DNA from: an uncultured Candidatus Saccharibacteria bacterium
GTDB lineage: Bacteria; Patescibacteriota; Minisyncoccia; Phycocordibacterales; UBA1006
Direction: 5' to 3'
Length of the DNA stretch: 64,000 nucleotides
Assembly: GCA_964592365.1 (NCBI GenBank)
Contig: CAZQDL010000002.1
Span: 86,139 to 150,138, forward strand
Shown: one piece after another, positions 21,199 to 48,286 of the stretch
How positions within the stretch are numbered: position 1 is the stretch's first letter
How the letters are laid out: the number at the start of each line of letters is the position of its first letter
Translations under genes and position numbers: made by a program
The notes under the pieces: model-generated
What the model was told of the DNA's origin: nothing
The model's database searches: none
Seen by the model: the letters and a program-made list of their open reading frames with translations, nothing else

Positions 21199-23106
21199 CT
21201 ATTTACTACTTTCTACTTTAGGAATATCTAATTGATAATCAATTAAGGTACGTTCAAGATCAACTTTTTTGATTCTCATTTTTACTTTGTCACCAATCTT
21301 AAATCTCTTATTACTCTTTTTTCCCACAATTGTTGCGGTTTTTTCTTTAAATTCCCAAAAATCATTACCTAAATCTTGGAGTCTAATCATTCCTTCTGAA
21401 CGTGAGTGTTCCTCTGCAACAAAGACACCAAATTTTGATGCTCCAGTAACTATTCCATCAAACACATCGTGTTGATTTCTTGCTGACATGTATTCAACTT
21501 GTTTGAGTTTAATTGAATTACGTTCAGCTGTTACCGCTGACTGTTCTTGTTGTGAACAATGGTTGCACATTTTTTCATGCCATGGCTGATCATATTCTGG
21601 TGCTGTTCCATTTAGAGCGTGTTCAAGAAGCCGGTGTGCAAGTACGTCAGGATATCGTCTAATCGGAGAAGTAAAATGACTATATGCATCAAAAGCTAGT
21701 CCAAAGTGACCAATATTATTCGTTGTATAGATAGCTTTTTGCATTGAACGAACAATAACTGATTGTAGGGTTTCATAAATTTCAGAACCTTCTGCTTCTT
21801 TGATAATTCTCTGAAGAGTTTCAGCAGGGATAATATTATCCTTAAGGGTTACTTGGTATCCTAATAGTGAAAGAAAATCTTTTAGTTTTTGTGCCTTCTC
21901 AGGATCAGGAGTATCGTGAACACGGTATACGAAGAAGGGAAGTTCTGTCTTTTTTACCGCAAGCGCAACTTCATTGTTTGCTAAAAGCATAAACTCTTCG
22001 ATAAGTTTATTAGTATCAATACGTTCTTTTATTTTTACATCAACAGGTTTTCCTTTCTCGTCTAAGATGAATTTAACTTCATATGTTTCAAAGTTAAGAG
22101 CTCCTTTTGCATACCGCTGTTCTGTATATATCTTTGAAAGCCTATTAAGCTCTAATAGTTCATGAGCATACAGACCTTCTTGTGCATCAAGAATATCTTG
22201 TGCTTCTTCATAGGTGAATCGCTTATTTGAATTAATTAGTGTTCTTCCAAACCATCTATCAAGAACATTTCCATTTTCAGGGTTGATGGTAAATACGGCA
22301 GAGTAAGCAAGTTTTTCTTCATCTTGTCGTAGAGAACATAATCCGTTTGAAAGTTCCTCAGGAAGCATAGGAATCGTCCTATCAACAAGATATACCGAAG
22401 TAGTTCTTTTCTGTGCTTCTTGATCTAAAGCGGTTCCTGGCCGCACATAATGAGAAACATCTGCAATATGAATACCAATTTCATAATTACCGTTATCATC
22501 TTTCTTGAATGAAAGCGCATCATCAAAATCCTTTGCGTCTGCTGGATCTATCGTAAAGGTTAAGGTATCTCTCATATCACGTCTTCCTTCTCGATCAGTG
22601 TCAGTAATTCCACGTCGTTCAAGTTCTTGTGCTTCATGCTCAACTGCTTCAGGAAAAGCAAAGTCAAATCCTTGTTCAAGAGCAATTCCATTCATGTGAG
22701 CATCGTTGCTTTCAGGGTGCCCAAGATCTTTTTGAATAGTTCCAACTAAAGGATTTCCATATTGCTCTACGACTGCAAATACCTTATTTCCTAGTTTGAT
22801 AGAAACGCTATCACCATTAGGAATTACAATATCCGGAATCTTAAAATTATCAGTATCAACAATATAGTGATCTCCTTGTTTTTTGAAGATTCCTCCGAAA
22901 CCAACTTGTGATCGGTTAATTACAGAAACTACTTTTCCTTCAGATTTCTTTTCATCAGTCATTACAACTTCTACCTCATCTTTGTGAAGTGCTGTGTTAC
23001 TTTCATGTTTAGGTATTTCAATTACCGTATCTTTTTCCTGGGTTTTTACGAAACCAATACCATTTTTCCCAAGAGAATAGATACCTTTAAATGTTGTTTG
23101 TATGTT
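21199..23106 (-). CDS. rnr: ribonuclease R (RNB family exoribonuclease with cold-shock and S1 domains)
   Basis: CSD-like GIGFVKTQEK, RNB-domain DRTIPMLPEELSNGLCSL...SPIRRYPD, C-terminal S1. ORF track start 23169; internal ATG at 23106 (MNIQTT) is 7 nt downstream of TGGTATACT and preferred. Confidence 0.88.
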   Translation of the reverse strand, partial: NIQTTFKGIYSLGKNGIGFVKTQEKDTVIEIPKHESNTALHKDEVEVVMTDEKKSEGKVVSVINRSQVGFGGIFKKQGDHYIVDTDNFKIPDIVIPNGDSVSIKLGNKVFAVVEQYGNPLVGTIQKDLGHPESNDAHMNGIALEQGFDFAFPEAVEHEAQELERRGITDTDREGRRDMRDTLTFTIDPADAKDFDDALSFKKDDNGNYEIGIHIADVSHYVRPGTALDQEAQKRTTSVYLVDRTIPMLPEELSNGLCSLRQDEEKLAYSAVFTINPENGNVLDRWFGRTLINSNKRFTYEEAQDILDAQEGLYAHELLELNRLSKIYTEQRYAKGALNFETYEVKFILDEKGKPVDVKIKERIDTNKLIEEFMLLANNEVALAVKKTELPFFVYRVHDTPDPEKAQKLKDFLSLLGYQVTLKDNIIPAETLQRIIKEAEGSEIYETLQSVIVRSMQKAIYTTNNIGHFGLAFDAYSHFTSPIRRYPDVLAHRLLEHALNGTAPEYDQPWHEKMCNHCSQQEQSAVTAERNSIKLKQVEYMSARNQHDVFDGIVTGASKFGVFVAEEHSRSEGMIRLQDLGNDFWEFKEKTATIVGKKSNKRFKIGDKVKMRIKKVDLERTLIDYQLDIPKVESSK

Positions 23107-23169
23107 CATACCTGAAAGTATACCACATGTACTTGCTAAATAAGGACGATTTGATAGGATAGCGGTCAT

Positions 23170-23739
23170 ATGTTAATGATGAGATTACAAAGAATTGGTC
23201 GTCGAAACGAAGCACACTTTAAAGTTGTGGTTATTGAAAAGACCAAAGGACCAAAGTCACAAAAGTATGTTGATATTATTGGTTCATACAATCCAAAGCT
23301 AGGGAATGTAACTATTAATGCTGAAAAGGCAAATAAGTGGTTATCAGAGGGAGTACAACCTTCAGATACCGTACGTAACTTCCTAATTAGCCAAGGAATC
23401 CTTGAAGGAAGAAAGGTAAATGCATTACCAAAGAAATCTCCTACAAAGAAGAAAAATGCCCCTGAGGTAGAAGAAAAACCAGAACCAAAGGTAGTTGTAG
23501 AAGAAGTTAAGGCTCCAGAAGTTGTTGAAGAAGTAACTGAAGCACCAGCTGAAGTTGTTGAAGAAACTCCAGAAGCAAGTGAAGAAGTATCTGAAGTTGT
23601 TGAAACACCAGAAGTTGCAGAAGAAGTTTCAGAACCTGGTGCTGAAGAGGTAGAAACACCAGCTGAAGTAGTTGAAGAAGCACCTGAAATAGTTACAGAA
23701 GAGTCTTCAGAAGAAGAAAAAGAAGAAACCACCGTATAG
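23170..23739 (+). CDS. rpsP: 30S ribosomal protein S16 (bS16) with ~110-aa acidic PEV-repeat C-terminal extension
   Basis: N-terminal ~80 aa MRLQRIGRRNEAHFKVVVIEKTKGPKSQKYVDIIGSYNP... = bS16; remainder is low-complexity PEVVEE(V/T)... repeats. Confidence 0.85.
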   Translation: MLMMRLQRIGRRNEAHFKVVVIEKTKGPKSQKYVDIIGSYNPKLGNVTINAEKANKWLSEGVQPSDTVRNFLISQGILEGRKVNALPKKSPTKKKNAPEVEEKPEPKVVVEEVKAPEVVEEVTEAPAEVVEETPEASEEVSEVVETPEVAEEVSEPGAEEVETPAEVVEEAPEIVTEESSEEEKEETTV

Positions 23740-23771
23740 TGTGGTTTCTTTTTATTTGGTATAATTTGTGG

Positions 23772-23889
23772 GTCACATTGTCTTCAGTGTAAGTCAGTGG
23801 CGGCACTCACATAGGATGTTCAATGGAGCTCGCACCCACTGGCTTACATTGGAGATAAATAAAAAAATATCTGAAAAGATATTTTTTTT
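23772..23889 (+). ncRNA. candidate structured small RNA of unknown class, own promoter and terminator
   Basis: Extended -10 TGGTATAAT at 23757..23765. A 20-bp helix (23781..23800 pairs with 23836..23855) whose three mismatches are all G-U wobbles on the plus strand but A/C clashes on the minus strand. Ends with hairpin aaaaaaatatc-tgaaaa-gatattttttt. No match to SRP RNA domain IV, tRNA or RNase P motifs. Confidence 0.4.
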
Positions 23890-23896
23890 ATTTTGA

Positions 23897-23905
23897 TGAT
23901 ATAAT
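23897..23905 (+). promoter_or_regulatory. extended -10 TGATATAAT 7 nt upstream of pilin-1 ATG (leaderless)
   Basis: Identical TGATATAATTC element precedes three of four pilin paralogs at 7-9 nt from the ATG. Confidence 0.55.
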
Positions 23906-23912
23906 TCGTTGT

Positions 23913-24416
23913 ATGAAATCTAAAGGATTTACATTAATTGAACTGCTGGTCGTGGTAGCCATTATTGGGATATTGGCAACGGTAGTGTTGGCATCACTAG
24001 GAAGTGCCCGAGTGAGAGCTCGAGATGCTTCAATTAGAGCATCACTTACAGGAATGCGGGCTCAAGCAGAGTTGCAATACCTTGTTGATGGTAATTACAA
24101 TAATATTTGTGATCCTGAAAGTCAGTCAGGAAAGATGTTTGCAGCAGCACATGCTTTATCTTCCGTCTCTTCAACAACAATGAATCTTTGTGCAGATCAA
24201 GATGGATATTTTGGAGTAGTTCCTGGAGGTACTTTACCAACAGGAGATCTAGGAGCTTATATGGGAACGGATTCAAATGGAACTGTTTGGCTTGCTGAAA
24301 TTCAGTTAAATAGCGGAGGATGGTTTTGTGTTGATTCAAATGGAGCAGCGAATAATGTGAGTACGATATCTCGTGTAGGAAGCCCAATGGATAAGACGTG
24401 TAATCCAGCTTCTTAA
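23913..24416 (+). CDS. type IV pilin-like protein (prepilin N-terminal cleavage/methylation motif), paralog 1
   Basis: [39 protein letters not shown]: class III signal (G|FTLIEL), hydrophobic alpha1-N helix; two C-terminal Cys (D-region). Confidence 0.85.
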
Positions 24417-24425
24417 TTGTTATAT

Positions 24426-24452
24426 AAAAAATAAACCATTACGGTTTATTTT
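24426..24452. terminator. bidirectional terminator (ataaacc attac ggtttat + T-run)
   Basis: Read directly between convergent genes. Confidence 0.6.
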
Positions 24453-24455
24453 TTA

Positions 24456-25133
24456 TTATTTCAAAATATATCTGAGTGTTGAAACAACTCGTACATTCTT
24501 ATATTCAGGAGAGGCTTGATCCTTGTTGGTGATAGAGAATACTCCTTGATTTGCTCTCGCAAGATCACCTAAAGATGCATCTGAATCTTCAGCAAATTTT
24601 TCAGCAGCTTCCTTTCCGTTTGCTATAGCTTCAGCTAACATATCAGATTTAATGCTGTTAAGATCAGTGAATTCGAATTCTATATAGCTGTTGTTGAAGA
24701 TAACACCATTTTGGATAAGGGATGCAGTATTTTCTGAGCTTGTTCGAAGTAGATCAACTTTGTCAGTATATACTGACATTTGAACACTAGCGTTGTATCG
24801 AAATACTGAATCACGATAGGTGTCTTGATATACATTGATAGGTGCTACGTTGAATTCTTCCTCTTGGAATCCTTGTTTGATAAGGAATGATTTAATAGTA
24901 CTTGTGTTGGTATCAATCTGCTTATACAAATCATCAATATCATTTGATTTTACATCAATTCCAATTGACCAAATACCTCTATCAGCTTTTACGATTCTTT
25001 CAGAAAGACCTTTTACTTCAACATATTTTCCTTGATCTGAAAAATTACGAGAGGCACTTAGGAAGAATATTCCTGCAATGATGACCGTTGTGATAATAAC
25101 AATGTCTTGTGTTCTGATGGTTATGTTTTTCAT
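24456..25133 (-). CDS. SIMPL/YggE-like (DUF541) membrane-anchored protein
   Basis: N-terminal TM then a domain resembling SIMPL family proteins; TGGTATACT 6 nt upstream of ATG (MKNITIR). ORF track start 25151 is TTG. Confidence 0.45.
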   Translation of the reverse strand: MKNITIRTQDIVIITTVIIAGIFFLSASRNFSDQGKYVEVKGLSERIVKADRGIWSIGIDVKSNDIDDLYKQIDTNTSTIKSFLIKQGFQEEEFNVAPINVYQDTYRDSVFRYNASVQMSVYTDKVDLLRTSSENTASLIQNGVIFNNSYIEFEFTDLNSIKSDMLAEAIANGKEAAEKFAEDSDASLGDLARANQGVFSITNKDQASPEYKNVRVVSTLRYILK

Positions 25134-25216
25134 ATACATAGTATACCACAAATAGCATCATCTGACTTGTAAAAAAAAATAACCAGGTTGTGGTTATTTT
25201 AAGGGGGATGTTCTCT

Positions 25217-25304
25217 TGGCGGAGGCGACAGGATTCGAACCTGCGAAGGTATTACCCTTACTTCGTTAGCAGTGAAGCGCTTTCGACCACTCAGCCACGC
25301 CTCC
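25217..25304 (-). tRNA. tRNA-Ser (anticodon GCU), class II with long variable arm
   Basis: Minus-strand read ggaggcg-t-ggctgagtggtcgaaagc-g-cttca-CUGCUAA-cgaag-taagggtaataccttc-gcagg-TTCGAAT-cctgt-cgcctcc-g + CCA: 7-bp acceptor, 3-bp D stem, GCU anticodon, long extra arm, canonical T-loop, CCA encoded. Confidence 0.85.
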
Positions 25305-25383
25305 GTTGACTATTAAAGCAGAAAATTAGGATTCTGCAAAAGACTTTATGTTTATTTTATTTTTACTGGGGTAGAATAATTTT

Positions 25384-26049
25384 ATGAGGCTTTTAATTAT
25401 TGAAGATCAGAAAAAAATCAGAGATTATTTAAAAAAACATCTACAGACTGATTTCTTTGAAGTAGATACTGTTGGTGACGGAAAAAAGGGTTTAGAAATG
25501 ATTCGTCTTCATGATTATGACCTAGTTATTTTAGATAATTTACTTCCAGAAAAGAATGGTGTTGAAGTATGTAGAGAAGCGCGTTCATTTGGAATTCAAA
25601 CACCAATCCTTATCCTTTCTGTACTCAGCAGTGCAAAGGAAAAAACTGAACTTCTAAATGCTGGTGCTGATGATTATCTTTCTAAACCCTTTTCTTTTGA
25701 AGAATTGCAGGCTCGTATGCAAGCATTGCTACGAAGACCCAAAATTATCAAACAAGAAGTATTACAAGTAGGAAATATACAACTCAATGATACTACCAAC
25801 GTAGTGAGTGTTGGTGATGTTCGAGTAAAACTTACCAGAAAAGAATTTATGCTACTTCGTTATTTTATGACCAATGTAAACATTGTGCTGTCACGATCAA
25901 TGATCATTGATCATGTATGGGATATGAATGCTGATCCATTTTCAAATACCATAGAGGCTCATATCGTAAGTTTAAGAAAAAAGATATTTGATAAAAAGCA
26001 TATGGTTATTACCACTATTTCAGGAAGAGGATACAAAATGATTGGCTAG
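25384..26049 (+). CDS. OmpR/PhoB-family response regulator (receiver + winged-helix), orphan (no kinase adjacent)
   Basis: MRLLIIEDQKKIRDYL...DLVILDNLLPEKNG...DDYLSKPFSFEELQARMQALLRR and C-terminal wHTH. Confidence 0.8.
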   Translation: MRLLIIEDQKKIRDYLKKHLQTDFFEVDTVGDGKKGLEMIRLHDYDLVILDNLLPEKNGVEVCREARSFGIQTPILILSVLSSAKEKTELLNAGADDYLSKPFSFEELQARMQALLRRPKIIKQEVLQVGNIQLNDTTNVVSVGDVRVKLTRKEFMLLRYFMTNVNIVLSRSMIIDHVWDMNADPFSNTIEAHIVSLRKKIFDKKHMVITTISGRGYKMIG

Positions 26050-27416
26050 ATACTTCTAATATCTTGATCTCCATTAATATCACGAACTTCAAAACCTAAA
26101 TCTAAAAGTTCTTTCCTTATCGCATCTGAACTATCCCAGTTCTTTTCTTCCCGAGCGATTTTTCGTTCTTCAAGAAGTTTTATAACTGAAGCAGGAAGAG
26201 CATCTTCCTGTGTTTTATGTACTGATGATAATCGTAGTCCAAGTACCACATCCATTTTGAAAATGGTTGCAAGCATTTGAGATTGATCCTCAAGCTTTAG
26301 TACTTCATGAAATACTGCCAAGGCTTGAGGAACATTCATGTCATCTAAGATAGCTGAAGTGAAGGTGTTCAAAAGATCTGTATGAGGTTCAGAAGGAGAT
26401 ATTGAAGCTAGATCTTTTACTCTATTTACTATTTTCTTGTAACCTTCTTGGGCTTGACTAAGAATTTCAAAACTAAAATTCATAGGAGAACGATAGTGAC
26501 TTTGAAGACAAAGATATCGATATGCCAAAGGATCAATACCTTGTTCATTCAATGTAGCAAGAGTTATATTTCCACCAGTTGATTTTGAAAGTTTAGCTCC
26601 TTTCATATTTAACATACCTCCATGAAGCCAATATGATACATATGGACTACATCCTGTTGCACATTCACTTTGTGCAATTTCATTATTATGGTGAATACTC
26701 ATTAAATCACTTCCCCCTGTATGAATATCAAATTGTTCTCCTAGATATTTCATTCCCATTCCAGAACATTCAATATGCCAACCTGGAAATCCTTGTCCCC
26801 AAGGACTAGCCCAACCATGCTTTTCATCAAACTTCCATAGTGCAAAGTCACTAGGATGCTCTTTTTCAGAATTTACATGAATACGTGATGTTCCTTGATC
26901 TCCTATACCACCTAAGGCACCATATGAGGGCATATGTGAGGTTCTGAAATATATTCCATCACTTGTTTGGTAGGTAAATCCACGTACTTCTAACTTTTGG
27001 ATGATATCAATATCTTCTTGGATATGATCTGATGCTTTTGGAAGATAATGCGGGATATGGATATTTAAGGTATGGAGGTCTTGTATAAATGATTGGGTAT
27101 ATTTTTCAGCTACTGAAAGCATATTTTCAAGAGTGATTTCCATTCCTTCTCGTTTCAATGCCTTTGTCATTTTGTCATCACCTTCATCGCCATCTGAGAC
27201 AAGATGACCAACATCAGTAATGTTCATTACCTGTTTAGTTGTATATCCAAGAAATTCAAAAATTCTTCGGGTAATATCACCCAAAAGAAATGAACGAAGG
27301 TTTCCAATATGAATATGATCATATACCGTTGGTCCACAGTGATACATTGAAATTTCATTATCACGAAGAGGAATAACCTCTTCTTTTTGCTTACTTAGAC
27401 TGTTGTAAAGTTTCAT
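26046..27416 (-). CDS. cysS: cysteinyl-tRNA synthetase
   Basis: MYHCGPTVYDHIHIGNLRSF (HIGH region), KLSKSTGGN (KMSKS). ORF track begins at GTG 27422; ATG at 27416 (MKLYNSL) lies 6 nt after TGATACAAT. Confidence 0.93.
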   Translation of the reverse strand: MKLYNSLSKQKEEVIPLRDNEISMYHCGPTVYDHIHIGNLRSFLLGDITRRIFEFLGYTTKQVMNITDVGHLVSDGDEGDDKMTKALKREGMEITLENMLSVAEKYTQSFIQDLHTLNIHIPHYLPKASDHIQEDIDIIQKLEVRGFTYQTSDGIYFRTSHMPSYGALGGIGDQGTSRIHVNSEKEHPSDFALWKFDEKHGWASPWGQGFPGWHIECSGMGMKYLGEQFDIHTGGSDLMSIHHNNEIAQSECATGCSPYVSYWLHGGMLNMKGAKLSKSTGGNITLATLNEQGIDPLAYRYLCLQSHYRSPMNFSFEILSQAQEGYKKIVNRVKDLASISPSEPHTDLLNTFTSAILDDMNVPQALAVFHEVLKLEDQSQMLATIFKMDVVLGLRLSSVHKTQEDALPASVIKLLEERKIAREEKNWDSSDAIRKELLDLGFEVRDINGDQDIRSI

Positions 27417-27471
27417 ATTCACATTGTATCATGAGCTTTATTGTATCAGTACTTGTGATACACTCAGACTT

Positions 27472-29916
27472 ATGAGTTTTTTACAAAAAATATTTGGAGA
27501 TGAAGGATCAAAAATCCTCAAAAGATTAGAAAAGAGAGTACATGAAATTAATGCTCTTGAATCACGAATCGAAGCATTGACTGACGAAGAACTTGCTCTT
27601 CAGACTTTAGTGTTTAAAGATCAACTAAAGCAGGGGAGTACTCTTGATGATATTCTTCCTGAAGCATTTGCAACGGTACGTGAAGTTGCAAAAAGAACCT
27701 TAGGTCAACGTCACTATGACGTACAACTTATCGGTGGAATGGTACTTCACGAAGGACTGATTGCTGAAATGAGAACTGGAGAAGGAAAAACTCTGGTTTC
27801 AACACTTCCGGTATATCTTAATGCTCTTGAAGGAAAAGGTGTTCATGTTGTTACCGTAAATGACTATCTTTCACGACGTGATGCTCAGTGGATGGGGCAA
27901 ATTTTTGCCTTTCTTGGTCTTTCTGTTGGAGTGGTGAATGACCAGAACAAGTCATATTTATATGATTCAGGTCACCAAGAAGTTGATGAAGAACGTGATG
28001 AAATAGGTTCATATCATATCTTCTATGAATTCCTTAAACCATCGACACGAAAACAGGCATATGATGCAGATATTACCTATGGAACTAATAACCAGTTTGG
28101 TTTTGATTACCTACGAGATCACACAACACAACGAGTTGATCAGGTAGTTCAACGTGGGCATCACTATGTTGTAATTGATGAGGTGGATTCAATCCTTATC
28201 GACGAAGCAAGAGTTCCTTTAATTCTCTCAACAGCAAGTGACAATCCTGCATCGCTATATACAACTATGGATACCATTGCAAGAACCTTGCAAGAGGGTA
28301 GTGACTATGAGCTTGATGAAAAATTGAAAGCAGTTTCACTTACCGACATGGGTATATCAAAAGCTGAAAAGGCATTGAATATTGATAATATGTATACCCA
28401 AGAACATATTAACTTAGTGCATCATCTTGAAACAGCTGTTCGTGCTCATGCTGTATTTCAACGTGACCGTGATTATGTAATTCAGAAAAATGAAGTACTT
28501 ATCGTTGATCAGTTCACTGGACGTTTACAAGAAGGACGACGATATAGTGATGGTCTTCATCAGGCACTTGAAGCAAAGGAACGAGTACCGATTCAACAAG
28601 AATCTAAGACTCTTGCTTCAATTACCTATCAAAACTATTTTAAATTCTATACCAAGATTTCTGGAATGACCGGAACAGGAAAGACTTCAGAAGAAGAATT
28701 TCAAAAGGTATATGGTCTTGACGTTGTAGTTATCCCAACAAACCGTCCAATTGCTCGTATTGATCAGGTTGATTTAATCTATCAAAATGAAAAAGCAAAA
28801 TTCAAGGCGATTGCAAGAAAAATTAAAGAGAAACAAAAAGAAGGTCAACCAGTACTTGTAGGTACTGTATCTGTTGAAAAGAATGAATTGCTTTCAGCAT
28901 ATCTAAAACAGGAAGGAGTTCCTCATAAAATGTTGAACGCAAAGAACCATGAGCAGGAAGGAGAAATTATCGCTCAAGCTGGAAAACCAGGATCTGTAGT
29001 AATTGCAACAAACATGGCAGGACGAGGAGTTGATATAAAGCTTGGAGGAAATCCATGTACCAAAGAAGAACAACAGGTAAAGGATTTAGGAGGATTGTTT
29101 GTATTAGGTACTGAACGTCATGATGCTCGAAGAATTGATGATCAGCTAAGAGGTCGTGCTGGACGACAAGGAGATCCAGGAGAAACTCAGTTCTTTGTTT
29201 CTATGGATGATCCAATTATGAAAATATTTGGAGGTGACAAGATAAAGACAATAGTTTCTGCATTAGGGCTAGCTGATGATGAAGCTATTCAAAACAAAAC
29301 TATTTCAAAGCAACTACAAGGAGCTCAGGAAAAAGTAGAAGGATTCCATTTTGATGGAAGAAAGTCTACTCTTGATTATGATAACGTGTTGTCATACCAA
29401 AGAAACACCGTGTATGAACGACGACAAAAGATTCTTTTTGGTGATGAAGCATACTTGAAAACTATTGAAGATCGAATTGCAAATTCAGGCACTGAACTAC
29501 AAGAATTAATTGAAAAGAAACGTGCATCAGCAAATAGGGAAGACTATGTGGAAGCTCTAAGACGTATTTCACTATATGTAAATGATATGCTTTGGATGCA
29601 ACATCTTCAGGTGATGGACTACACTCGATCATCAGTAACTCTTCGAGCATATGGTCAGCGTGAACCACTCGTTGAATACAAAAAAGAAGGTTTACGACTA
29701 TTCAATGAAATGCAACAGGCTTTCGATATAAAGGTTGCTGAAATGATGTCCCGAGTTGATATACAAGCGATGCTTGGTGAACCAAAACAAGAGACGGCTA
29801 CTCCTGAATTATTTAAAGATGAGGATAGTGTAGAGATAATAAAAAATGGAGAAGTAAGAAAGGTAAAGAAAAAGAAACTTTCAAACTATATTGATGCAGG
29901 ATGGAAAGAGAGATAA
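27472..29916 (+). CDS. secA: preprotein translocase ATPase SecA
   Basis: MSFLQKIFGDEGSKILKRLEK..., DEAD-like motor domains. Start at ATG 27472, 7 nt after TGTGATACACT. Confidence 0.95.
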   Translation: MSFLQKIFGDEGSKILKRLEKRVHEINALESRIEALTDEELALQTLVFKDQLKQGSTLDDILPEAFATVREVAKRTLGQRHYDVQLIGGMVLHEGLIAEMRTGEGKTLVSTLPVYLNALEGKGVHVVTVNDYLSRRDAQWMGQIFAFLGLSVGVVNDQNKSYLYDSGHQEVDEERDEIGSYHIFYEFLKPSTRKQAYDADITYGTNNQFGFDYLRDHTTQRVDQVVQRGHHYVVIDEVDSILIDEARVPLILSTASDNPASLYTTMDTIARTLQEGSDYELDEKLKAVSLTDMGISKAEKALNIDNMYTQEHINLVHHLETAVRAHAVFQRDRDYVIQKNEVLIVDQFTGRLQEGRRYSDGLHQALEAKERVPIQQESKTLASITYQNYFKFYTKISGMTGTGKTSEEEFQKVYGLDVVVIPTNRPIARIDQVDLIYQNEKAKFKAIARKIKEKQKEGQPVLVGTVSVEKNELLSAYLKQEGVPHKMLNAKNHEQEGEIIAQAGKPGSVVIATNMAGRGVDIKLGGNPCTKEEQQVKDLGGLFVLGTERHDARRIDDQLRGRAGRQGDPGETQFFVSMDDPIMKIFGGDKIKTIVSALGLADDEAIQNKTISKQLQGAQEKVEGFHFDGRKSTLDYDNVLSYQRNTVYERRQKILFGDEAYLKTIEDRIANSGTELQELIEKKRASANREDYVEALRRISLYVNDMLWMQHLQVMDYTRSSVTLRAYGQREPLVEYKKEGLRLFNEMQQAFDIKVAEMMSRVDIQAMLGEPKQETATPELFKDEDSVEIIKNGEVRKVKKKKLSNYIDAGWKER

Positions 29917-29950: not shown

Positions 29951-29959
29951 TCATTGTAT

Positions 29960-30430
29960 ATGAAGAATAAAGGATTCACCTTAATTGAATTACTTGTAGT
30001 TGTTGCCATTATCGGAATACTCGCAACGGTGGTATTAGCATCACTTGGAAGTGCAAGAACAAGAGCTCGAGATGCAGCAATCAAATCATCACTATCAAGT
30101 ATGAGAACTCAAGCTGAGTTACAGTATCTTGTAGCAAATAACTATAATGATATTTGTGATTTAGAATCACAAACTGGAAAAATATTTAGAGATGCTTTTT
30201 CAAAAGCAGGAGTTGGTTCTTCAAGTAATGCTTGTAGAGATAGTAACGGGACCTTTAGTGGAAACACTGGAGGAACACTTATCTCAAGCGCACCGGTGTT
30301 TCCAGATGCATGGAAAGTTCGAATTAAGCTAAATGCAGGAGATTGGATCTGTTTAGATAGTACAGGTTCATTGGTTGAAGTTACGACAGCCCCATCATAC
30401 GATACGGGAAATTCTGACTGTACTACATAA
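29960..30430 (+). CDS. type IV pilin-like protein, paralog 2
   Basis: [39 protein letters not shown]; closest to paralog 1 (…[25 protein letters not shown]…). ORF track start 29954 is TTG; ATG at 29960. Confidence 0.85.
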   Translation: MKNKGFTLIELLVVVAIIGILATVVLASLGSARTRARDAAIKSSLSSMRTQAELQYLVANNYNDICDLESQTGKIFRDAFSKAGVGSSSNACRDSNGTFSGNTGGTLISSAPVFPDAWKVRIKLNAGDWICLDSTGSLVEVTTAPSYDTGNSDCTT

Positions 30431-31954: not shown

Positions 31955-32330
31955 GGGGATGATCGGCTTCGAAAGAAAGCATCATAACCCTGTTGCATAC
32001 CTGGTTGGTAGTGAACCAGTCAAAAGACTACGGCTCATAGATGCAGAAAATTCTATTGCTTCTCCTTACTTTAAGGGAAGCCTTGCATACGCATAACAAA
32101 CCTTGCAGCAAGTGCACCTCAGTACATTGTTCAGTAGTATTGCCGGTGTATCATAATCATTGAACTAGGGAAGAGAAATTGTTTCGATCTTTTCTTGAAT
32201 TAAAGAAACTCGAGGGTAGTACGCTTATGCTTATTTTTTAGTACTATTCTTTAACAACATAAGATAAGCTAAGTATGTAGATATAGGCTTGTGACCTTAC
32301 TTCACGCGGGTTCGATTCCCGCCATCTCCA
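31955..32330 (+). ncRNA. ssrA: tmRNA (transfer-messenger RNA)
   Basis: 5' end GGGGAUGAUCGGCUUCGAAAG (acceptor 5' strand + D-analogue UUCGA). 3' end GCGGG-UUCGAUU-CCCGC-CAUCUCC-A (T-arm + acceptor pairing to 5' GGGGAUG with one G-U); CCA not encoded. Internal candidate tag frame gca gaa aat tct att gct tct cct tac ttt aag gga agc ctt gca tac gca TAA (…SPYFKGSLAYA*). ~376 nt. Confidence 0.8.
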
Positions 32331-32336
32331 CATAGT

Positions 32337-38624: not shown

Positions 38625-38627
38625 TTG

Positions 38628-38701
38628 TACGCCCAGAGGGATTCGAACCCCCAACTTCCGAGGAATAAGCTCGGCACTCTAGCCAATTGAGTTATAGGCG
38701 C
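38628..38701 (-). tRNA. tRNA, anticodon apparently UAU (Ile/AUA) with unusual U37 and two G-U pairs in the acceptor stem
   Basis: Minus-strand read gcgccua-u-a-acuc-aauuggcua-gagu-g-ccgag-cuUAUuc-cucgg-aaguu-ggggg-UUCGAAU-cccuc-ugggcgu-a (73 nt; CCA not encoded). Perfect anticodon stem; 7-nt loop c-u-U-A-U-u-c. Confidence 0.55.
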
Positions 38702-38758: not shown

Positions 38759-40936
38759 TTATTCAAAGTGGATATTGTAATTTTCCTTTGAAATGATATC
38801 ACGTAATTCTGGAAAATTATCCAACACTGGATCATGTTTGATGATATCCTGAGCTTCATTTCTTGCAAATTCAACCATTTTGATGTTTTTGATGGCTTCC
38901 ATAGCAAGGTCTGATATACCCCATTGTTTTACTCCTGCAAGATCTCCAATACCTCGTAGCATCATATCCATTTCTGCTAATTCAAATCCATTCTTCGCGT
39001 GCTTAATGGCCTGTAATCGTTCAATTGTTTTTTCACTTTTAGCATCTGCAAATAAGTAGCAATATGCCTGATGATTAGAACGTATTACTCGACCACGAAG
39101 CTGATGTAATTGAGCTAATCCAAAACGTTCAGCTCCTTCGATGATGATAGAGGTAGCATTAGGAACATTTACTCCAACCTCAACTACAGAAGTAGAAACA
39201 AGAATATCAATTTCATGATTATAGAATTTTTCCATGACCTTTTCTTTTTGTATCTTGGTCATTTTGCTATGCATAATATCAATACGAAACTCCTTATAAA
39301 CTGTATTCTTTAATCTTTGTGCCTCTGCCTTTACCGAAGTTAATTGCAAAGATTGTTCTTTACTTTGATCTGCTTCCTCGATTCGTGGGCAGATAACATA
39401 GGCTTGTCTACCTTCTTTAAGTGATGATCGGATTGATTCATATACTTCTGAACGTGAACTGATATCTGGTGATACAATCTCTGTGATAACCTGTTTTCTT
39501 CCTTGAGGCATAGTGTCAATTACAGAAAGATCAAGATCTCCGTATATGGTAAGAGCAAGTGTTCTTGGAATTGGTGTCGCTGTCATGGAAAGAAAGTGAG
39601 GAATTCTCTTTTCTTTGGAACCAAGTTTCATTCTCTGCTTCGTACCAAATCGATGCTGTTCATCTATGATGGCAAGAGCAAGATCTTGAAATACTACTTT
39701 CTTTTGTATTAGCGTATGTGTTCCTATAACAATCGGAATTTCACCATTTGCAATCCATTTAGTTAATTGAGATCGTGAAATATTAGTCCACGCTTCTCCA
39801 GGAACTTTGGAGGGAAATTTCCTACATCCAGATCCTGTTAAGAGTCCAATTTGAATACCAAGACCTTTGAAATATTCAACGAAATTTTCAAAAAGTTGTG
39901 TTGCAAGAACTTCTGTTGGTGCCATATATGCAACCTGTAGTCTTCCATAGCTTTGATTTCCTGGACGGTTTGAAACTGTTGCATATGCAGCTGTTGCTGC
40001 AACGAATGTCTTTCCGGAACCAACATCACCCTCAAGAAGTCGTGACATTGGATGTGACGATGTCATATCATTGATAATCGCATTAACCGCGTCATGTTGT
40101 GCTTTTGTTGGAGTAAAAGGAAAGCGATCGATAAATGATTGAATTGTTTTTTGCTCAACATTGAGTTTGTATGAAAAATGCTTCTGGTATTGCAATCTTC
40201 TCTGTTGATTTTTTAATTGAATGAGGAATATTTCTTCAAAGGCAAATCTTTTCTGTGCTGCTTTTGCGTGATTACTTGATTGTGGTGAATGAATCCAAAC
40301 CAAGGCTGTTTGTAGAGTAGGTAACTTGTATTTTTGAAGAATAAAAGAGGGTAAAGGATCTTCTAATTTATCTAGAATTCCTGATCCAAGAATTTTAATG
40401 ATACTGTGATATATCCATTTTGAAGTAATCCCTTTTGATTCACGATATATAGGGTAACCGAACTCCTTTTCTTCAGGAGATTCGTTGAATAACGAATCTC
40501 CTGTATCAATAGGGAACGATGAAAGTTTTTCAAATTCTGGATTTGTTAAGGTTTTACCATACTTTCCATCAGATATTTTCCCAGTTAATTTAACCATCTG
40601 GCCTTCATTGAGGGTTTTTGCAATAAATGCTTGGTTGAACCAAATAATTTTCACCGTGTTATTTTGAAGATCAGTTAATGTTGCTTGAGCAGTAGGAACG
40701 TTAGTACGATATGTCTTTTTGATACTAATTTTTGAAAGTACTCCATAAATGGTAACTACATCATCACTATTGCTTTGTGCAATGCTACTTACCGTACTCA
40801 TATGACTATATCGAGTCGGGAAATAGTAAAGAAGGTCTTTTATCGTTTCAATGCCTAAACGCGAAAGAGCCCTCTTCTGTGTCTCTTGGGTTCGTAGTGT
40901 CTCAAATATTTTTGTATCAAGATTAATATTCTTCAC
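38759..40936 (-). CDS. recG: ATP-dependent DNA helicase RecG
   Basis: N-terminal LSRLGIETIKDLLYYFPTRY wedge/HhH region, Walker A DVGSGKTFVAATAAYA, DEQH box IDEQHRFG, motif VI QLRGRV. ORF track starts at TTG 40954; GTG at 40936 (MKNINLDTK) is 8 nt after TGATATACT. Confidence 0.9.
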   Translation of the reverse strand: MKNINLDTKIFETLRTQETQKRALSRLGIETIKDLLYYFPTRYSHMSTVSSIAQSNSDDVVTIYGVLSKISIKKTYRTNVPTAQATLTDLQNNTVKIIWFNQAFIAKTLNEGQMVKLTGKISDGKYGKTLTNPEFEKLSSFPIDTGDSLFNESPEEKEFGYPIYRESKGITSKWIYHSIIKILGSGILDKLEDPLPSFILQKYKLPTLQTALVWIHSPQSSNHAKAAQKRFAFEEIFLIQLKNQQRRLQYQKHFSYKLNVEQKTIQSFIDRFPFTPTKAQHDAVNAIINDMTSSHPMSRLLEGDVGSGKTFVAATAAYATVSNRPGNQSYGRLQVAYMAPTEVLATQLFENFVEYFKGLGIQIGLLTGSGCRKFPSKVPGEAWTNISRSQLTKWIANGEIPIVIGTHTLIQKKVVFQDLALAIIDEQHRFGTKQRMKLGSKEKRIPHFLSMTATPIPRTLALTIYGDLDLSVIDTMPQGRKQVITEIVSPDISSRSEVYESIRSSLKEGRQAYVICPRIEEADQSKEQSLQLTSVKAEAQRLKNTVYKEFRIDIMHSKMTKIQKEKVMEKFYNHEIDILVSTSVVEVGVNVPNATSIIIEGAERFGLAQLHQLRGRVIRSNHQAYCYLFADAKSEKTIERLQAIKHAKNGFELAEMDMMLRGIGDLAGVKQWGISDLAMEAIKNIKMVEFARNEAQDIIKHDPVLDNFPELRDIISKENYNIHFE

Positions 40937-45145: not shown

Positions 45146-46942
45146 ATGTCATCTGATCAAAAAGTTACCTATTTCGGGGTTACTGATTTTAGGAATAATA
45201 GAACAAAATTTGGAATCAAGAATATTGATCGATCTCGTCATGTCTATGTGATAGGGAAGACAGGTATGGGAAAATCAACTCTCCTTGAAAACATGGCAGC
45301 ACAAGACATTCTCAATGGAGAAGGAATGTGTTTTGTTGATCCTCATGGTTCTGCAATTGATACTTTGCTACAGTATGTTCCTGAACATCGAATCAACGAT
45401 GTAGTATATTTTGCTCCCTTTGATACCGACTTCCCAATTACCTTTAACGTAATGGAAGATGTTGGTGTAGATAAACGGCATTTGGTGGTAAATGGCCTTA
45501 TGGCTTCATTTAAAAAAATATGGCAAGACGCATGGTCTGCGCGAATGGAGTATATCCTTACCAACACCTTACTTGCTTTACTTGAATACCCTGGTTCAAC
45601 CCTTCTTGGGGTAAACAGAATGCTTGCTGAAAAAGAGTATAGAAATGAAGTGGTGAAGCATGTGACTGATGCTTCTGTACGATCTTTTTGGATTGATGAG
45701 TATGGAAAATGGGATCCTCGATATGCAAAAGAGGCAGGGGCTGCAATTCAAAACAAGATTGGACAATTCACAGCAAATCCATTAATTAGGAATATTATCG
45801 GACAAGAACAATCATCGTTTGATATTCGAAAGGTAATGGATGAACGAAAAATATTGTTAGTAAATCTTTCTAAAGGAAGAATTGGAGAACAAAATGCAAA
45901 ACTATTAGGAGGAATGCTTATTACTAAAATATATTTAGCTGCAATGAGTCGCGCTGAAGTTGGAGCTTCTAATCTTTCTCAACTACCTAATTTCTTTTTC
46001 TTTGTGGACGAGTTTCAGAACTTCGCAACAGAGTCTTTCGCAGACATTCTATCAGAAGCAAGAAAGTATAAGTTAAACCTTACTATTGCACACCAATATG
46101 TTGCACAGATGCAAGAAGAGGTAAAAGACGCAGTGGTGGGTAACGTTGGAACGATGATAACTTTCAGGATTGGAGCAGAAGATGCTGAATTATTTGAAAA
46201 ACAATTCGCTCCAGTATTTACCGCAGAAGATATTGTAAATCTTGGGAAGTTTCAAATATATCTTTCACTAATGATTGATGGAATTGGTTCACGACCATTT
46301 TCTGCAGAAACCATGTCTCCTATCGAAAAGCCAAGAGTGAGCTTGGTACGCGAGGTAATAGAGGCATCACGAGCTAAATACGCACAATCAAGAGTTCTTG
46401 TAGAACAGGATATTGCTAAATGGTATGAACCAATAACAAAACCAGAAAAGAGAAGTATTAATGGTACTAATACAGGAACACAGAAGCCACAAGTCTCAGC
46501 TGAACCAGTTGTGAAGAAAACATTCATCGTTGCAAAAGAAAGAGATACTTCAGGTCCTTTTAAAAAGGCATTGAAAGAACTTGATGAAAAAGAAGCGGAG
46601 CTTGAAATGAAAAAAATAGTTTCCCCACGTTTGAATACTCTTCTTGAAAAACTTGATGGAAAAAAGGAGGTGCTTGGAACAACAACAAAGATACCTGAGG
46701 TTATCAAGAATATTAAAAAGAATGATTCATATGCAACTTCTACACAAAAAAGTGATAGAGCAGCTGACAAAAGTACAAAATCATCCTTACAAGACGCATT
46801 AGCTCGAGCATTAGCTGAAAATAAGCAGAAGGTAGAGAAAAATATTCCTAAGGTGAACATCCCTCAAGAAAAAGAGGAAAATGTTAATGTAAATCAAAAA
46901 AAGGAGATTCCTGAAGATGTACTGAGAGATATTTTAAATTAG
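45146..46942 (+). CDS. TraD/TraG/VirD4-family (HerA/FtsK superfamily) P-loop ATPase, soluble, with K/E-rich C-terminal tail
   Basis: Walker A VIGKTGMGKSTLLEN, then CFVDPHGSAID (vfDPkG-like), Walker B FFFFVDEFQNF, and EARKYKLNLTIAHQYVAQM (TraG-D_C-like RkyGi.l.lA.Q..sQl). No N-terminal TM helices. TGTGATATACT 9 nt upstream of ATG. Confidence 0.6.
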   Translation: MSSDQKVTYFGVTDFRNNRTKFGIKNIDRSRHVYVIGKTGMGKSTLLENMAAQDILNGEGMCFVDPHGSAIDTLLQYVPEHRINDVVYFAPFDTDFPITFNVMEDVGVDKRHLVVNGLMASFKKIWQDAWSARMEYILTNTLLALLEYPGSTLLGVNRMLAEKEYRNEVVKHVTDASVRSFWIDEYGKWDPRYAKEAGAAIQNKIGQFTANPLIRNIIGQEQSSFDIRKVMDERKILLVNLSKGRIGEQNAKLLGGMLITKIYLAAMSRAEVGASNLSQLPNFFFFVDEFQNFATESFADILSEARKYKLNLTIAHQYVAQMQEEVKDAVVGNVGTMITFRIGAEDAELFEKQFAPVFTAEDIVNLGKFQIYLSLMIDGIGSRPFSAETMSPIEKPRVSLVREVIEASRAKYAQSRVLVEQDIAKWYEPITKPEKRSINGTNTGTQKPQVSAEPVVKKTFIVAKERDTSGPFKKALKELDEKEAELEMKKIVSPRLNTLLEKLDGKKEVLGTTTKIPEVIKNIKKNDSYATSTQKSDRAADKSTKSSLQDALARALAENKQKVEKNIPKVNIPQEKEENVNVNQKKEIPEDVLRDILN

Positions 46943-46954
46943 CTTAATGCTGTA

Positions 46955-48286
46955 TTGATAAAAACGAATGATATGTATTTCATTCGTTTTTGTTTTCTCT
47001 TAGTTATTTTTCTACCAACACTTGCACATGCACAATTTTCTATTACAGAAATTATGTATGATGCAGAGGGAACAGATACAGGAAATGAATGGGTGGAGGT
47101 GAAAAATACTTCCAATCAGGAACATGATTTTTCAAAGTGGTACTTTAGAGAAAATGAAGTGGATCATAGGTTAACATCATTTGGATCTGAACTTATACAA
47201 CCAGGAGAATATGCCATTATTATCTCAAACCAAGAAAACTTCGAAGCCGCATTTGGTGCAAATCACCAATTATTCAAAAGTTCATTTTCTTTGAATAATA
47301 CAGGAGAGTTAATTGCACTAAGAAATCCAGAGAAAGAATTAGTGACACAATATTTATATTCTTCAGATAGTGGGGCAGCAGGGGATGGAAATAGTCTTCA
47401 ATATAATGGAACAACTTTTGTTTCGAGATCTCCAAGCCCCTCTGAAGATATCAATAATCAACAGGAACAAACAAATACTACAGAATCAGGAACTACATCA
47501 AAAACAACAAGTACACGTTCACAGGAAAAAGAATTCATTCCATACTATGAAGCACATATACAAGTAGACGAAACTATCCTTGCTGGGAATCAGACAACAA
47601 TACGCCCCTTGGTATATCATCATAAAGAAAGAGAAGTATCTCATGTAAAAATAAGAGGTGTGTATTTATTAAATATGGGTGATGGTACCCAACATATATA
47701 TGATGAACGTATGGAGTTTGATCATATATATCAATCTCCTGGAACATATATTCAAAGTCTTGCTTTCTATTCAAGTTCCTTCAGATATGAACAGCAAGAA
47801 CAACCAACATTGATATATACTCAATTGATCACCGTATATCAACCAGATGTATCAATATCAGCTAATGAATTTGGAGGATTGGAAATTGCTAATATGCAAA
47901 ATCATCCACTTGATGTCTCAGGGTGGAAGATTACTCACCCTCTTGGATCCTTTGAATTTCCTTCATATAGCTACATTACTCAAAAGGCTTCCATTTCAAT
48001 TCCATATCATATCCTTGGTGCTTACGTTACAAGTGAAATCATTCATGACATTGATATATGGAACCATGATAATTACTCTGTGGTTGCTAAAGAAGAAGTT
48101 CAAGAACCAATCCAGAAAATTGAAAAAGTCGAAGAAGTAATTGTAAGGGAAGAAGTGACTCTTCCTGAAGCTAAGGATGAAGATACTAATCAATATCCCT
48201 TCATCGTTGGTTTTATTATCTCAACTCTTATCATCGCAGGTGTACGTTACTACAAGAAAAATATTGAAAAAGAACCTATTGGATAG
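46955..48286 (+). CDS. secreted lamin-tail-domain (LTD) protein with C-terminal membrane anchor
   Basis: Signal peptide then FSITEIMYDAEGTDTGNEWVEVKNTSNQEHDFSKWYF...IQPGEYAIII...NNTGELIALRNPEKELVTQY = canonical LTD; a second LTD-like segment (SANEFGGLEIANMQNHPLDVSGWKITH); C-terminal TM FIVGFIISTLIIAGV. 12 nt after the ATPase gene. Confidence 0.8.
   Translation: MIKTNDMYFIRFCFLLVIFLPTLAHAQFSITEIMYDAEGTDTGNEWVEVKNTSNQEHDFSKWYFRENEVDHRLTSFGSELIQPGEYAIIISNQENFEAAFGANHQLFKSSFSLNNTGELIALRNPEKELVTQYLYSSDSGAAGDGNSLQYNGTTFVSRSPSPSEDINNQQEQTNTTESGTTSKTTSTRSQEKEFIPYYEAHIQVDETILAGNQTTIRPLVYHHKEREVSHVKIRGVYLLNMGDGTQHIYDERMEFDHIYQSPGTYIQSLAFYSSSFRYEQQEQPTLIYTQLITVYQPDVSISANEFGGLEIANMQNHPLDVSGWKITHPLGSFEFPSYSYITQKASISIPYHILGAYVTSEIIHDIDIWNHDNYSVVAKEEVQEPIQKIEKVEEVIVREEVTLPEAKDEDTNQYPFIVGFIISTLIIAGVRYYKKNIEKEPIG

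Follow-up and report, generated by a model that had tools for sequence, protein, structure and literature searches.

A previously unclassified family of structured small RNA encoded downstream of rpsP in a clade of Candidatus Paceibacteria

We describe here a hairpin RNA encoded between rpsP and a pilin-like gene in a 64,000-nucleotide stretch of genomic DNA (the whole of which we call the window), which represents a genuine new family, previously unclassified, of structured small RNAs with a gene of their own. At gathering thresholds the element has no match in Rfam 15, as anticipated by an earlier reading of the sequence alone (the sequence-only reading), which had placed it outside the known families, and no description of this RNA was found in searches of the literature on SRP RNA or on structured RNAs in the CPR. 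To our knowledge, the CPR or Patescibacteria combine tiny genomes and few regulators with hardly any characterised non-coding RNAs other than those that are universal. As we understand it, the locus would be a stand-alone, single-copy and vertically inherited gene for a plus-strand small RNA. In this line, the RNA offers a defined entry point for metatranscriptomics, structure probing and pull-downs in bacteria that are difficult to culture, and the covariance model built for it (R1) can be used for its annotation in metagenomes.

Organisation of the RNA gene

The window is A/T-rich and encodes the ribosomal protein S16 at 23170-23739, so that a gap of 173 nt is left between the end of rpsP (23739) and the start of the pilin-like (N_methyl) ORF at 23913. 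All the features described next are on the plus strand. A predicted intrinsic terminator of rpsP (23720-23756), made of a 13-pair stem at 23720-23753 that overlaps the stop codon and of a T-run, would separate the rpsP transcript from the RNA gene, and counterpart terminators also occur 3′ of rpsP in relatives. With the terminator stem at 23720-23753, the order of elements becomes terminator, -10 box, hairpin and terminator. The extended -10 promoter box TGGTATAAT can be read directly in the sequence at 23757-23765, and its position would set the start of transcription near 23772. In the RNAfold minimum-energy structure, a small 5′ leader hairpin (UGUG GGU CACA) is found at 23767-23777, the sequence of which is not conserved, as the small hairpins found at this position in three relatives (L077, L092 and L093) are unrelated to it. 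There follow the 5′ arm of the long helix (23778-23800), which pairs with 23836-23858, the invariant apical domain CGGCACUCACAUAGGAUGUUCAAUGGAGCUCGCAC of 35 nt (23801-23835), delimited by the alignments of 11 lineages, and the 3′ arm (23836-23858), supported by a base-by-base check, RNAfold and covariation. Directly 3′ of the long hairpin we find AUAAAUAAAAAAA, and after that a separate intrinsic terminator of the RNA gene (23861-23895), recognised in the sequence and by RNAfold, with an A-tract, an AUAUCU/AGAUAU hairpin and a T-run. A consensus terminator scanner that needs at least three G-C pairs did not call the terminator at 23861-23889 because its hairpin is A/U-rich, although RNAfold does fold it. 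The predicted primary transcript, with ends taken from the -10 box and the terminator, covers 23772-23890 (~120 nt), transcription probably running from the extended -10 at 23757-23765 to the terminator at 23861-23889. Within it, the structured part of the family is 81-87 nt long and forms a single long helix (a hairpin gene of ~85 nt), and the R1 model matches the window at 23773-23859 with 99.2 bits. The coordinates previously given for the -10 box, a 20-bp helix, the terminator and the 173-nt gap were all correct base by base.

Some features of the adjacent genes deserve a separate mention. The S16 protein carries a C-terminal extension (23450-23736, plus strand) of ~95 residues, acidic, repetitive and rich in E, V and P, a tail that is variable in both length and sequence among relatives (proteins of 130-214 aa). 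On the other side of rpsP, the listed RNase R ORF (21199-23169, minus strand) abuts the rpsP ATG with zero intergenic bases. Most relatives align from residue 21 of RNase R (a few from residues 4-17), so its true start is probably the Met at ~23109, which would leave a divergent promoter region of ~60 nt. As for the pilin gene, an extended -10 (TGATATAAT, TGGTACACT and similar) ends 7 nt before its ATG (window 23897-23915), and the same spacing is found upstream of secA in L078, L092, L093, L097 and L101; with a promoter so close to the start codon, both the pilin and the secA mRNAs look leaderless.

The gene boundaries are kept throughout the family. In agreement with the promoter and terminator of its own predicted from the window alone, each of the 11 members has a terminator upstream, belonging either to rpsP or to a different gene, then a -10-like box and, 3′ of the hairpin, a second terminator. 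The -10-like hexamer (TAnnnT) lies 11-40 nt 5′ of the hairpin, and in eight members it has the full extended form TGnTAnnnT, the TGn spacing being missing in L077, L093 and L101; the secA genes of relatives carry their own extended -10 box of the same type. An unrelated small 5′ hairpin is often present between the -10 box and the long hairpin. Downstream, the A-tract, hairpin and T-run begin 1-15 nt after the long helix in every member, with stem sequences that are unrelated between lineages. This comparative evidence leads us to infer an independent transcription unit of ~120-160 nt. The features that generally define a stand-alone sRNA gene, namely a one-strand covarying structure, a predicted promoter and terminator, and a non-coding sequence, are all found at this locus.

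The position of the RNA, always within ~100 nt of rpsP or secA, may also suggest a cis-acting element, such as a hairpin for 3′ processing or stability of rpsP, a tandem terminator, or an attenuator leader of secA, and RNase III might act on the perfect 23-bp duplex. We consider such a role quite improbable. A complete terminator occurs on either side of the RNA in every member, the RNA stays with rpsP when secA is displaced (window, L076 and L077) and with secA when rpsP is separated (L097), and an invariant tip of 35 nt is unnecessary for a terminator or a cleavage site. A plain terminator or attenuator was likewise rejected for the hairpin itself: no U-run comes directly after it, a separate terminator follows, and its 35-nt tip is invariant.

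Fold, strand and covariation

Twenty base pairs join 23781-23800 to 23836-23855, with three non-Watson-Crick positions (23784/23852, 23787/23849 and 23794/23842), all of which are G-U on the plus strand. The pairing continues outwards as far as 23778-23858, reaching 23-24 uninterrupted base pairs from the innermost pair G23800-C23836, with a fourth G-U at 23780/23856. The plus strand folds with an energy of -54.1 kcal/mol, compared with -25.2 ± 3.5 for shuffled sequences (z = -8.3; none of 200 as good), whereas the minus strand reaches only -38.1 kcal/mol. A chance origin of the hairpin is excluded. The helix arm is single-copy within the window.

Comparison among lineages reveals a helix maintained by compensatory change. 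With eight sequences, RNAalifold recovered the long helix and found compensatory changes in 16 of 28 pairs. In the model-guided alignment of the 11 lineages, 17 of the 23 helix pairs show double compensatory changes, and 96.4% of the cells in the helix are paired, in contrast with 82% in shuffles (0 of 500 as high) and 33-43% in slid controls, where the partners were moved by 1-3 columns. This 11-sequence alignment was fitted to the covariance model and therefore favours the structure; an independent MAFFT alignment gives the same picture. The conservation and covariation in related genomes that the sequence-only reading had proposed as a check are found across the 11 lineages. That reading had also taken the three mismatches, G-U on one strand, as the mark of a functional plus-strand RNA. 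The observation extends to the whole family, in which G-U cells of the helix outnumber C-A cells by 30 to 4, indicating that the plus strand is the RNA, and R1 scores the plus strands at 88-99 bits versus 28-37 bits for the minus strands. The base of the helix is semi-conserved (UCGUCUC / GAGRUGA), and the G-U close to it (alignment columns 8/84, window 23780/23856) is retained in 10 of the 11 members.

These data bear directly on the idea of a palindrome arising by chance or acting at the DNA level, either as a repeat of a mobile element or as an inverted repeat bound by a protein, with no RNA function. The inverted-repeat form, alone, would speak for it. The element, however, is single-copy, which also led us to reject a repeat or mobile element, it is syntenic in 11 lineages and absent from viral contigs, its G-U pairs are strand-specific, and compensatory changes keep the pairing, so that a DNA palindrome is effectively refuted.

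Synteny and distribution

The rpsP loci of S16 homologues were obtained via exact-protein look-ups. The identical S16 protein is present on 28 metagenomic contigs, and the source labels of its relatives read Candidatus Paceibacteria, Minisyncoccia or Campbellbacteria. A homologue of the hairpin lies 3′ of rpsP in all 11 lineages whose S16 N-terminal domain is ~70-86% identical (window, L076, L077, L078, L090, L091, L092, L093, L097, L101 and L102). Judging from these loci, the ancestral order would be RNase R (minus strand), rpsP, the RNA and secA, with homologues lying between rpsP and secA and with inserted genes that differ. The gene 3′ of the RNA is a pilin gene in the window, an NYN gene in L076 (where a ParB-methylase is also found downstream), a convergent PDEase gene in L077 and secA elsewhere, and in L097 the RNA and rpsP have an ORF between them. 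Such arrangements show that the RNA gene is independent of either neighbour, rpsP or secA. In the window, secA (27424-29916) is 3.5 kb away from the RNA, and the interval 23913-27423 contains the pilin gene, a SIMPL protein gene, tRNA-Ser(GCU), a response regulator gene and cysS; the insert of L076 at the same point is a different one (NYN, AAA and ParB-methyltransferase), which indicates that the spot 3′ of the RNA gene is prone to rearrangement. Directly after secA, the window has a second N-methyl (type IV pilin-like) ORF (29954-30430, plus strand), and further downstream a VirD4/TraG-like coupling protein is followed by a lamin-tail-domain protein (45146-46942 and 46955-48286, both on the plus strand).

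The usual neighbour of rpsP is ffh, not ffs. The sequence-only reading had invoked an rpsP neighbourhood where ffh/ffs-type genes often sit, which stands in general for ffh but not for ffs; at this locus ffh is not adjacent, and the conserved neighbour is secA instead.

Outside this group the RNA was not found. The outgroup locus L105 (S16 56% and RNase R 41% identical) keeps the upstream synteny and continues as rpsP-khpA-trmD, with no RNA at its rpsP locus and a best R1 match of 14 bits with filters off. The RNA is likewise missing from the rpsP loci of 49 Patescibacteria more distantly related. Most of these distant loci (L002-L050) have a KhpA-type KH-domain gene after rpsP, as does L105 (3641-4000, plus trmD), so the RNA and secA occupy in the RNA-bearing clade the position held elsewhere by the KhpA-type gene; no KhpA-like gene was detected in the 64-kb window or in the clade loci examined. 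A scan of a genome collection with S16 returned distant genomes only (at most 53% identity), none with the RNA, and the RNA was not found either in a scan of viral contigs. A metagenome scan with the pattern GGATGTTCN{0,6}GGAGCTCGCACC yielded L083, a single true member from the contig that also carries L078; the other eight matches fell by chance in G+C-rich coding DNA. This pattern was too strict because the loop varies. As far as sampled, the RNA family is restricted to one Paceibacteria clade, and for this reason it is not obviously a universal housekeeping RNA.

A frozen tip on a covarying arm

The apical domain follows the opposite regime to the helix. The segments CGGCACUCAC, AGGAUG and GAGCUCGCACC are identical across the 11 lineages, the core is essentially invariant, and variation is limited to the 5′ side of AGG (0-2 nt), to the 3′ side of AUG (3-6 nt) and to a G-to-A change in L102. 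The core is identical where, within the clade, RNase R and SecA keep 65-69% and 74-81% protein identity, respectively. A tip of 35 nt is thus more conserved than the essential proteins encoded alongside, and the RNA probably does something central in these cells. The predicted fold of this domain comprises a 2x2 internal loop, a 2-bp G-C helix, a 1x3 asymmetric loop and a CUC/GAG helix, with the invariant AGGAUG carried in a loop predicted at 15-17 nt. Covariation is silent on the small apical helices (GC/GC and CUC/GAG) because they never vary, and alternative registers are possible for them. The apical loop of 3-5 nt is variable (UUCAA, UACAA, AUAA, UUAG or UUC), with no GNRA among its versions. 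As indels of 1-2 nt occur inside the invariant core, and these are not multiples of three, the region is non-coding; the frames opened by the AUG of the loop diverge immediately. A small protein, either from a 42-aa ORF starting with GTG (23768-23896) or from the loop AUG, was considered and rejected, as both are broken by 2-nt indels in relatives.

Altogether, a covarying helix, a tip frozen on both strands of its internal loops and a frozen basal G-U point to recognition by a conserved macromolecular partner, and it is this pattern of frozen tip and free helix that makes us propose a docking or scaffold RNA rather than a regulator working through seed pairing. The RNA would be a rigid, uninterrupted helix of 23-24 bp capped by the 35-nt apical domain, where helix base pairs would be free to change as long as pairing is kept, and the apical domain and basal G-U would not. 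The invariant tip, i.e., both internal-loop strands and the AGGAUG loop, would provide the specific binding site, and the long helix a spacer or arm. From these sequence comparisons, we give an even chance to a docking or scaffold RNA of a ribonucleoprotein, with Ffh as the most concrete candidate partner. The perfect 23-bp duplex argues against a docking role, since RNase III could potentially cleave it, which would be uncommon in a stable RNP RNA, and it could instead point to a processed RNA. Should the partner be Ffh, the most conserved features of SRP RNA would be dispensable; should it be another one, the RNA would define a new RNP or regulator peculiar to an environmental lineage that is widespread.

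The same tip can be looked at as a source of seeds. A trans-acting sRNA would use the single-stranded CACUCACA, AGGAUG and GCUCGCACC to pair with mRNAs, and both the architecture of promoter, hairpin and U-tailed terminator, typical of bacterial sRNAs, and the predicted loops with C/A-rich and SD-like (AGGA and GGAG) motifs are in keeping with it. Nevertheless, 35 contiguous invariant nucleotides on both internal-loop strands go far beyond the needs of a seed, and several genes look leaderless, leaving little 5′ UTR to target. Moreover, the genes next to the RNA in 10 members, as well as the rest of the window, have no complementary site at a conserved position, indicating that the RNA is not a base-pairing regulator of its neighbours. 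We regard base pairing in trans as an unlikely function.

A second regulatory reading would be a CsrA/Rsm-type sponge that titrates a CsrA-like translational repressor. The repeat of CsrB is CAGGAUG, and the SELEX consensus of CsrA is RUACARGGAUGU. In this regard, the (C)AGGAUG of the loop corresponds to the CsrB repeat consensus, as an invariant AGGAUG in the apical loop of all members and as CAGGAUG in the L078 group. Known sponges, however, have many sites, and here a single GGA is invariant, the second (GGAG) being AGAG in L102. CsrA usually accompanies flagellar genes, and Paceibacteria of this kind are not known to carry any. A tblastn search with the E. coli and B. subtilis CsrA gave no match in the window or in the clade loci examined, and neither Ffh, CsrA nor Hfq genes were found in the 64-kb window. 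A sponge of this type is, in our opinion, very improbable.

Searches for known families

With thresholds relaxed to E<=10 and near-open filters, searches of Rfam 15 with three members (window, L097 and L077) gave no SRP family; the matches obtained were animal and plant miRNA-precursor models and terminator-like sRNA tails, i.e., generic hairpin matches. Other identities were examined and rejected as well. The 6S RNA has ~180 nt and a large central bubble between two long helices, versus 81-87 nt and one helix in our element, which has no Rfam 6S match. ARAGORN and Rfam find the tRNAs and the tmRNA of the window and nothing at 23740-23912 that would indicate a tRNA, tmRNA or tRNA-like structure. 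A K-turn, a T-loop or tRNA-like fold and a mimicry of the 23S GTPase centre (shared AGGAUGUU and AGCUC) were judged by eye and dropped, the matching bases being few or located in the variable loop. The SD/anti-SD mimicry at the base of the helix (GGAGGUGAU in three members) is not conserved in the others.

In the whole window, Rfam matches with E<=0.5 were only the tmRNA, two tRNAs and two spurious sub-threshold matches. One sub-threshold match is to the Yersinia sRNA Ysr141 (39823-40095, plus strand; 34 bits against a gathering threshold of 196), which falls inside the recG ORF and is almost certainly spurious. The tmRNA is canonical (31955-32333, plus strand; 103 bits), with the tag peptide AENSIASPYFKGSLAYA; it is ~2 kb 3′ of secA and shares the neighbourhood with the RNase R gene. 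A tRNA-Ile with anticodon UAU was found by ARAGORN and by the Rfam tRNA model (60 bits) at 38627-38701 on the minus strand. Most bacteria read AUA with a lysidine-modified CAU tRNA, an isoleucine tRNA with UAU being an uncommon solution.

A remodelled SRP RNA

An atypical SRP-like RNA was among the possibilities contemplated by the sequence-only reading. This idea finds an echo in the AGG...AGC arrangement of the tip, and none in the Rfam SRP models or in a GNRA tetraloop. In its full form, the RNA would be the SRP (4.5S-type) RNA of the clade, remodelled beyond recognition, with the AGG/AGC loop of the tip bound by Ffh and the long helix providing an arm for the movement of the Ffh-FtsY GTPase complex. 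The size and shape, those of an 85-nt hairpin whose tip is invariant, whose arm covaries and whose distal end has a conserved element with a G-U pair, would fit a small SRP RNA. Domain IV of the E. coli 4.5S RNA reads CAGG-(10 nt)-AGCA, and the tip of our RNA NAGG-(9-11 nt)-AGCU; a centred AGG-N9-11-AGC occurs in only 0.7% of shuffles of the apical domain, in a test made post hoc. The excess of unpaired nucleotides on the 5′ strand, A/C-rich, resembles the ACCA asymmetric loop, the RNA is located between rpsP, which usually neighbours ffh, and secA, and a canonical SRP RNA was not found in the 64-kb window. Nor was one detected (Rfam gathering thresholds) at the equivalent position of 20 rpsP loci, 16 from distant Patescibacteria and four from the clade.

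Inspection of the putative symmetric loop shows both sides of the question: AGG and AGC are invariant and 9-11 nt apart, but the fourth base is U, giving AGCU where 4.5S RNA has AGCA, there is no lower helix, and the candidate apical stem is made of A-G, U-G and G-U pairs. No Watson-Crick helix occurs between the two loops, a GNRA tetraloop is missing (the loop varies as GUUCA, GUACA, GAUA or GUUA), the arm is devoid of the internal loops typical of 4.5S RNA, and no Rfam 15 SRP family was recovered even at E<=10 in the three members already mentioned. The RNA is also missing at the same locus of the outgroup L105 despite the shared upstream synteny, and hence a remodelled SRP RNA would need a sudden remodelling followed by complete stasis. 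We therefore judge that this RNA is rather unlikely to be the SRP RNA of the clade, and slightly more doubtful still is that it represents a functional SRP RNA which lacks the GNRA tetraloop, has its two protein-binding loops fused and is invisible to standard models. If true, Ffh and FtsY would have co-evolved with the RNA, with a different coupling of cargo binding to GTPase activation.

Comparison with known systems

The docking or scaffold RNA that we propose can be set against three kinds of known RNAs. The first are the orphan structured ncRNA motifs that have come from comparative genomics, e.g., the surveys of intergenic regions by the Breaker lab (PMC6429828, PMC11109978). Our element shares with such motifs a conserved intergenic hairpin, covariation and a narrow phylogenetic range; it matches none of those included in Rfam 15, and a term search of the 2024 survey (PMC11109978) gave no mention of rpsP, SRP or Patescibacteria. 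As to CsrB/RsmZ, the likeness lies in a GGA motif of the CAGGAUG type in a hairpin loop and in a stand-alone sRNA gene with an intrinsic terminator. The differences are a single invariant GGA site instead of 4-22, a long perfect helix with an invariant internal-loop domain that is missing from CsrB/RsmZ, and no csrA gene found in the window or in the clade loci examined.

The closest parallel in design would be the 4.5S RNA (RF00169). Our RNA departs from it in that a GNRA tetraloop and a helix joining the symmetric and asymmetric loops are missing and AGCU takes the place of AGCA, in an arm that is a perfect duplex without conserved internal loops, in the absence of Rfam SRP models at E<=10 and in being known from one Paceibacteria clade only. 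Yet both are single hairpins of ~80-115 nt with a stand-alone gene, both have at the end of a covarying arm an apical domain that is highly conserved and contains internal loops, an AGG...AGC arrangement around a short apical stem-loop (predicted in our RNA) with a spacing of ~10 nt and a surplus of unpaired A/C-rich nucleotides on the 5′ strand, and the gene sits among translation and secretion genes (rpsP and secA). By analogy, the design of a docking RNA would be the same as that of hairpin RNPs of the 4.5S/SRP type.
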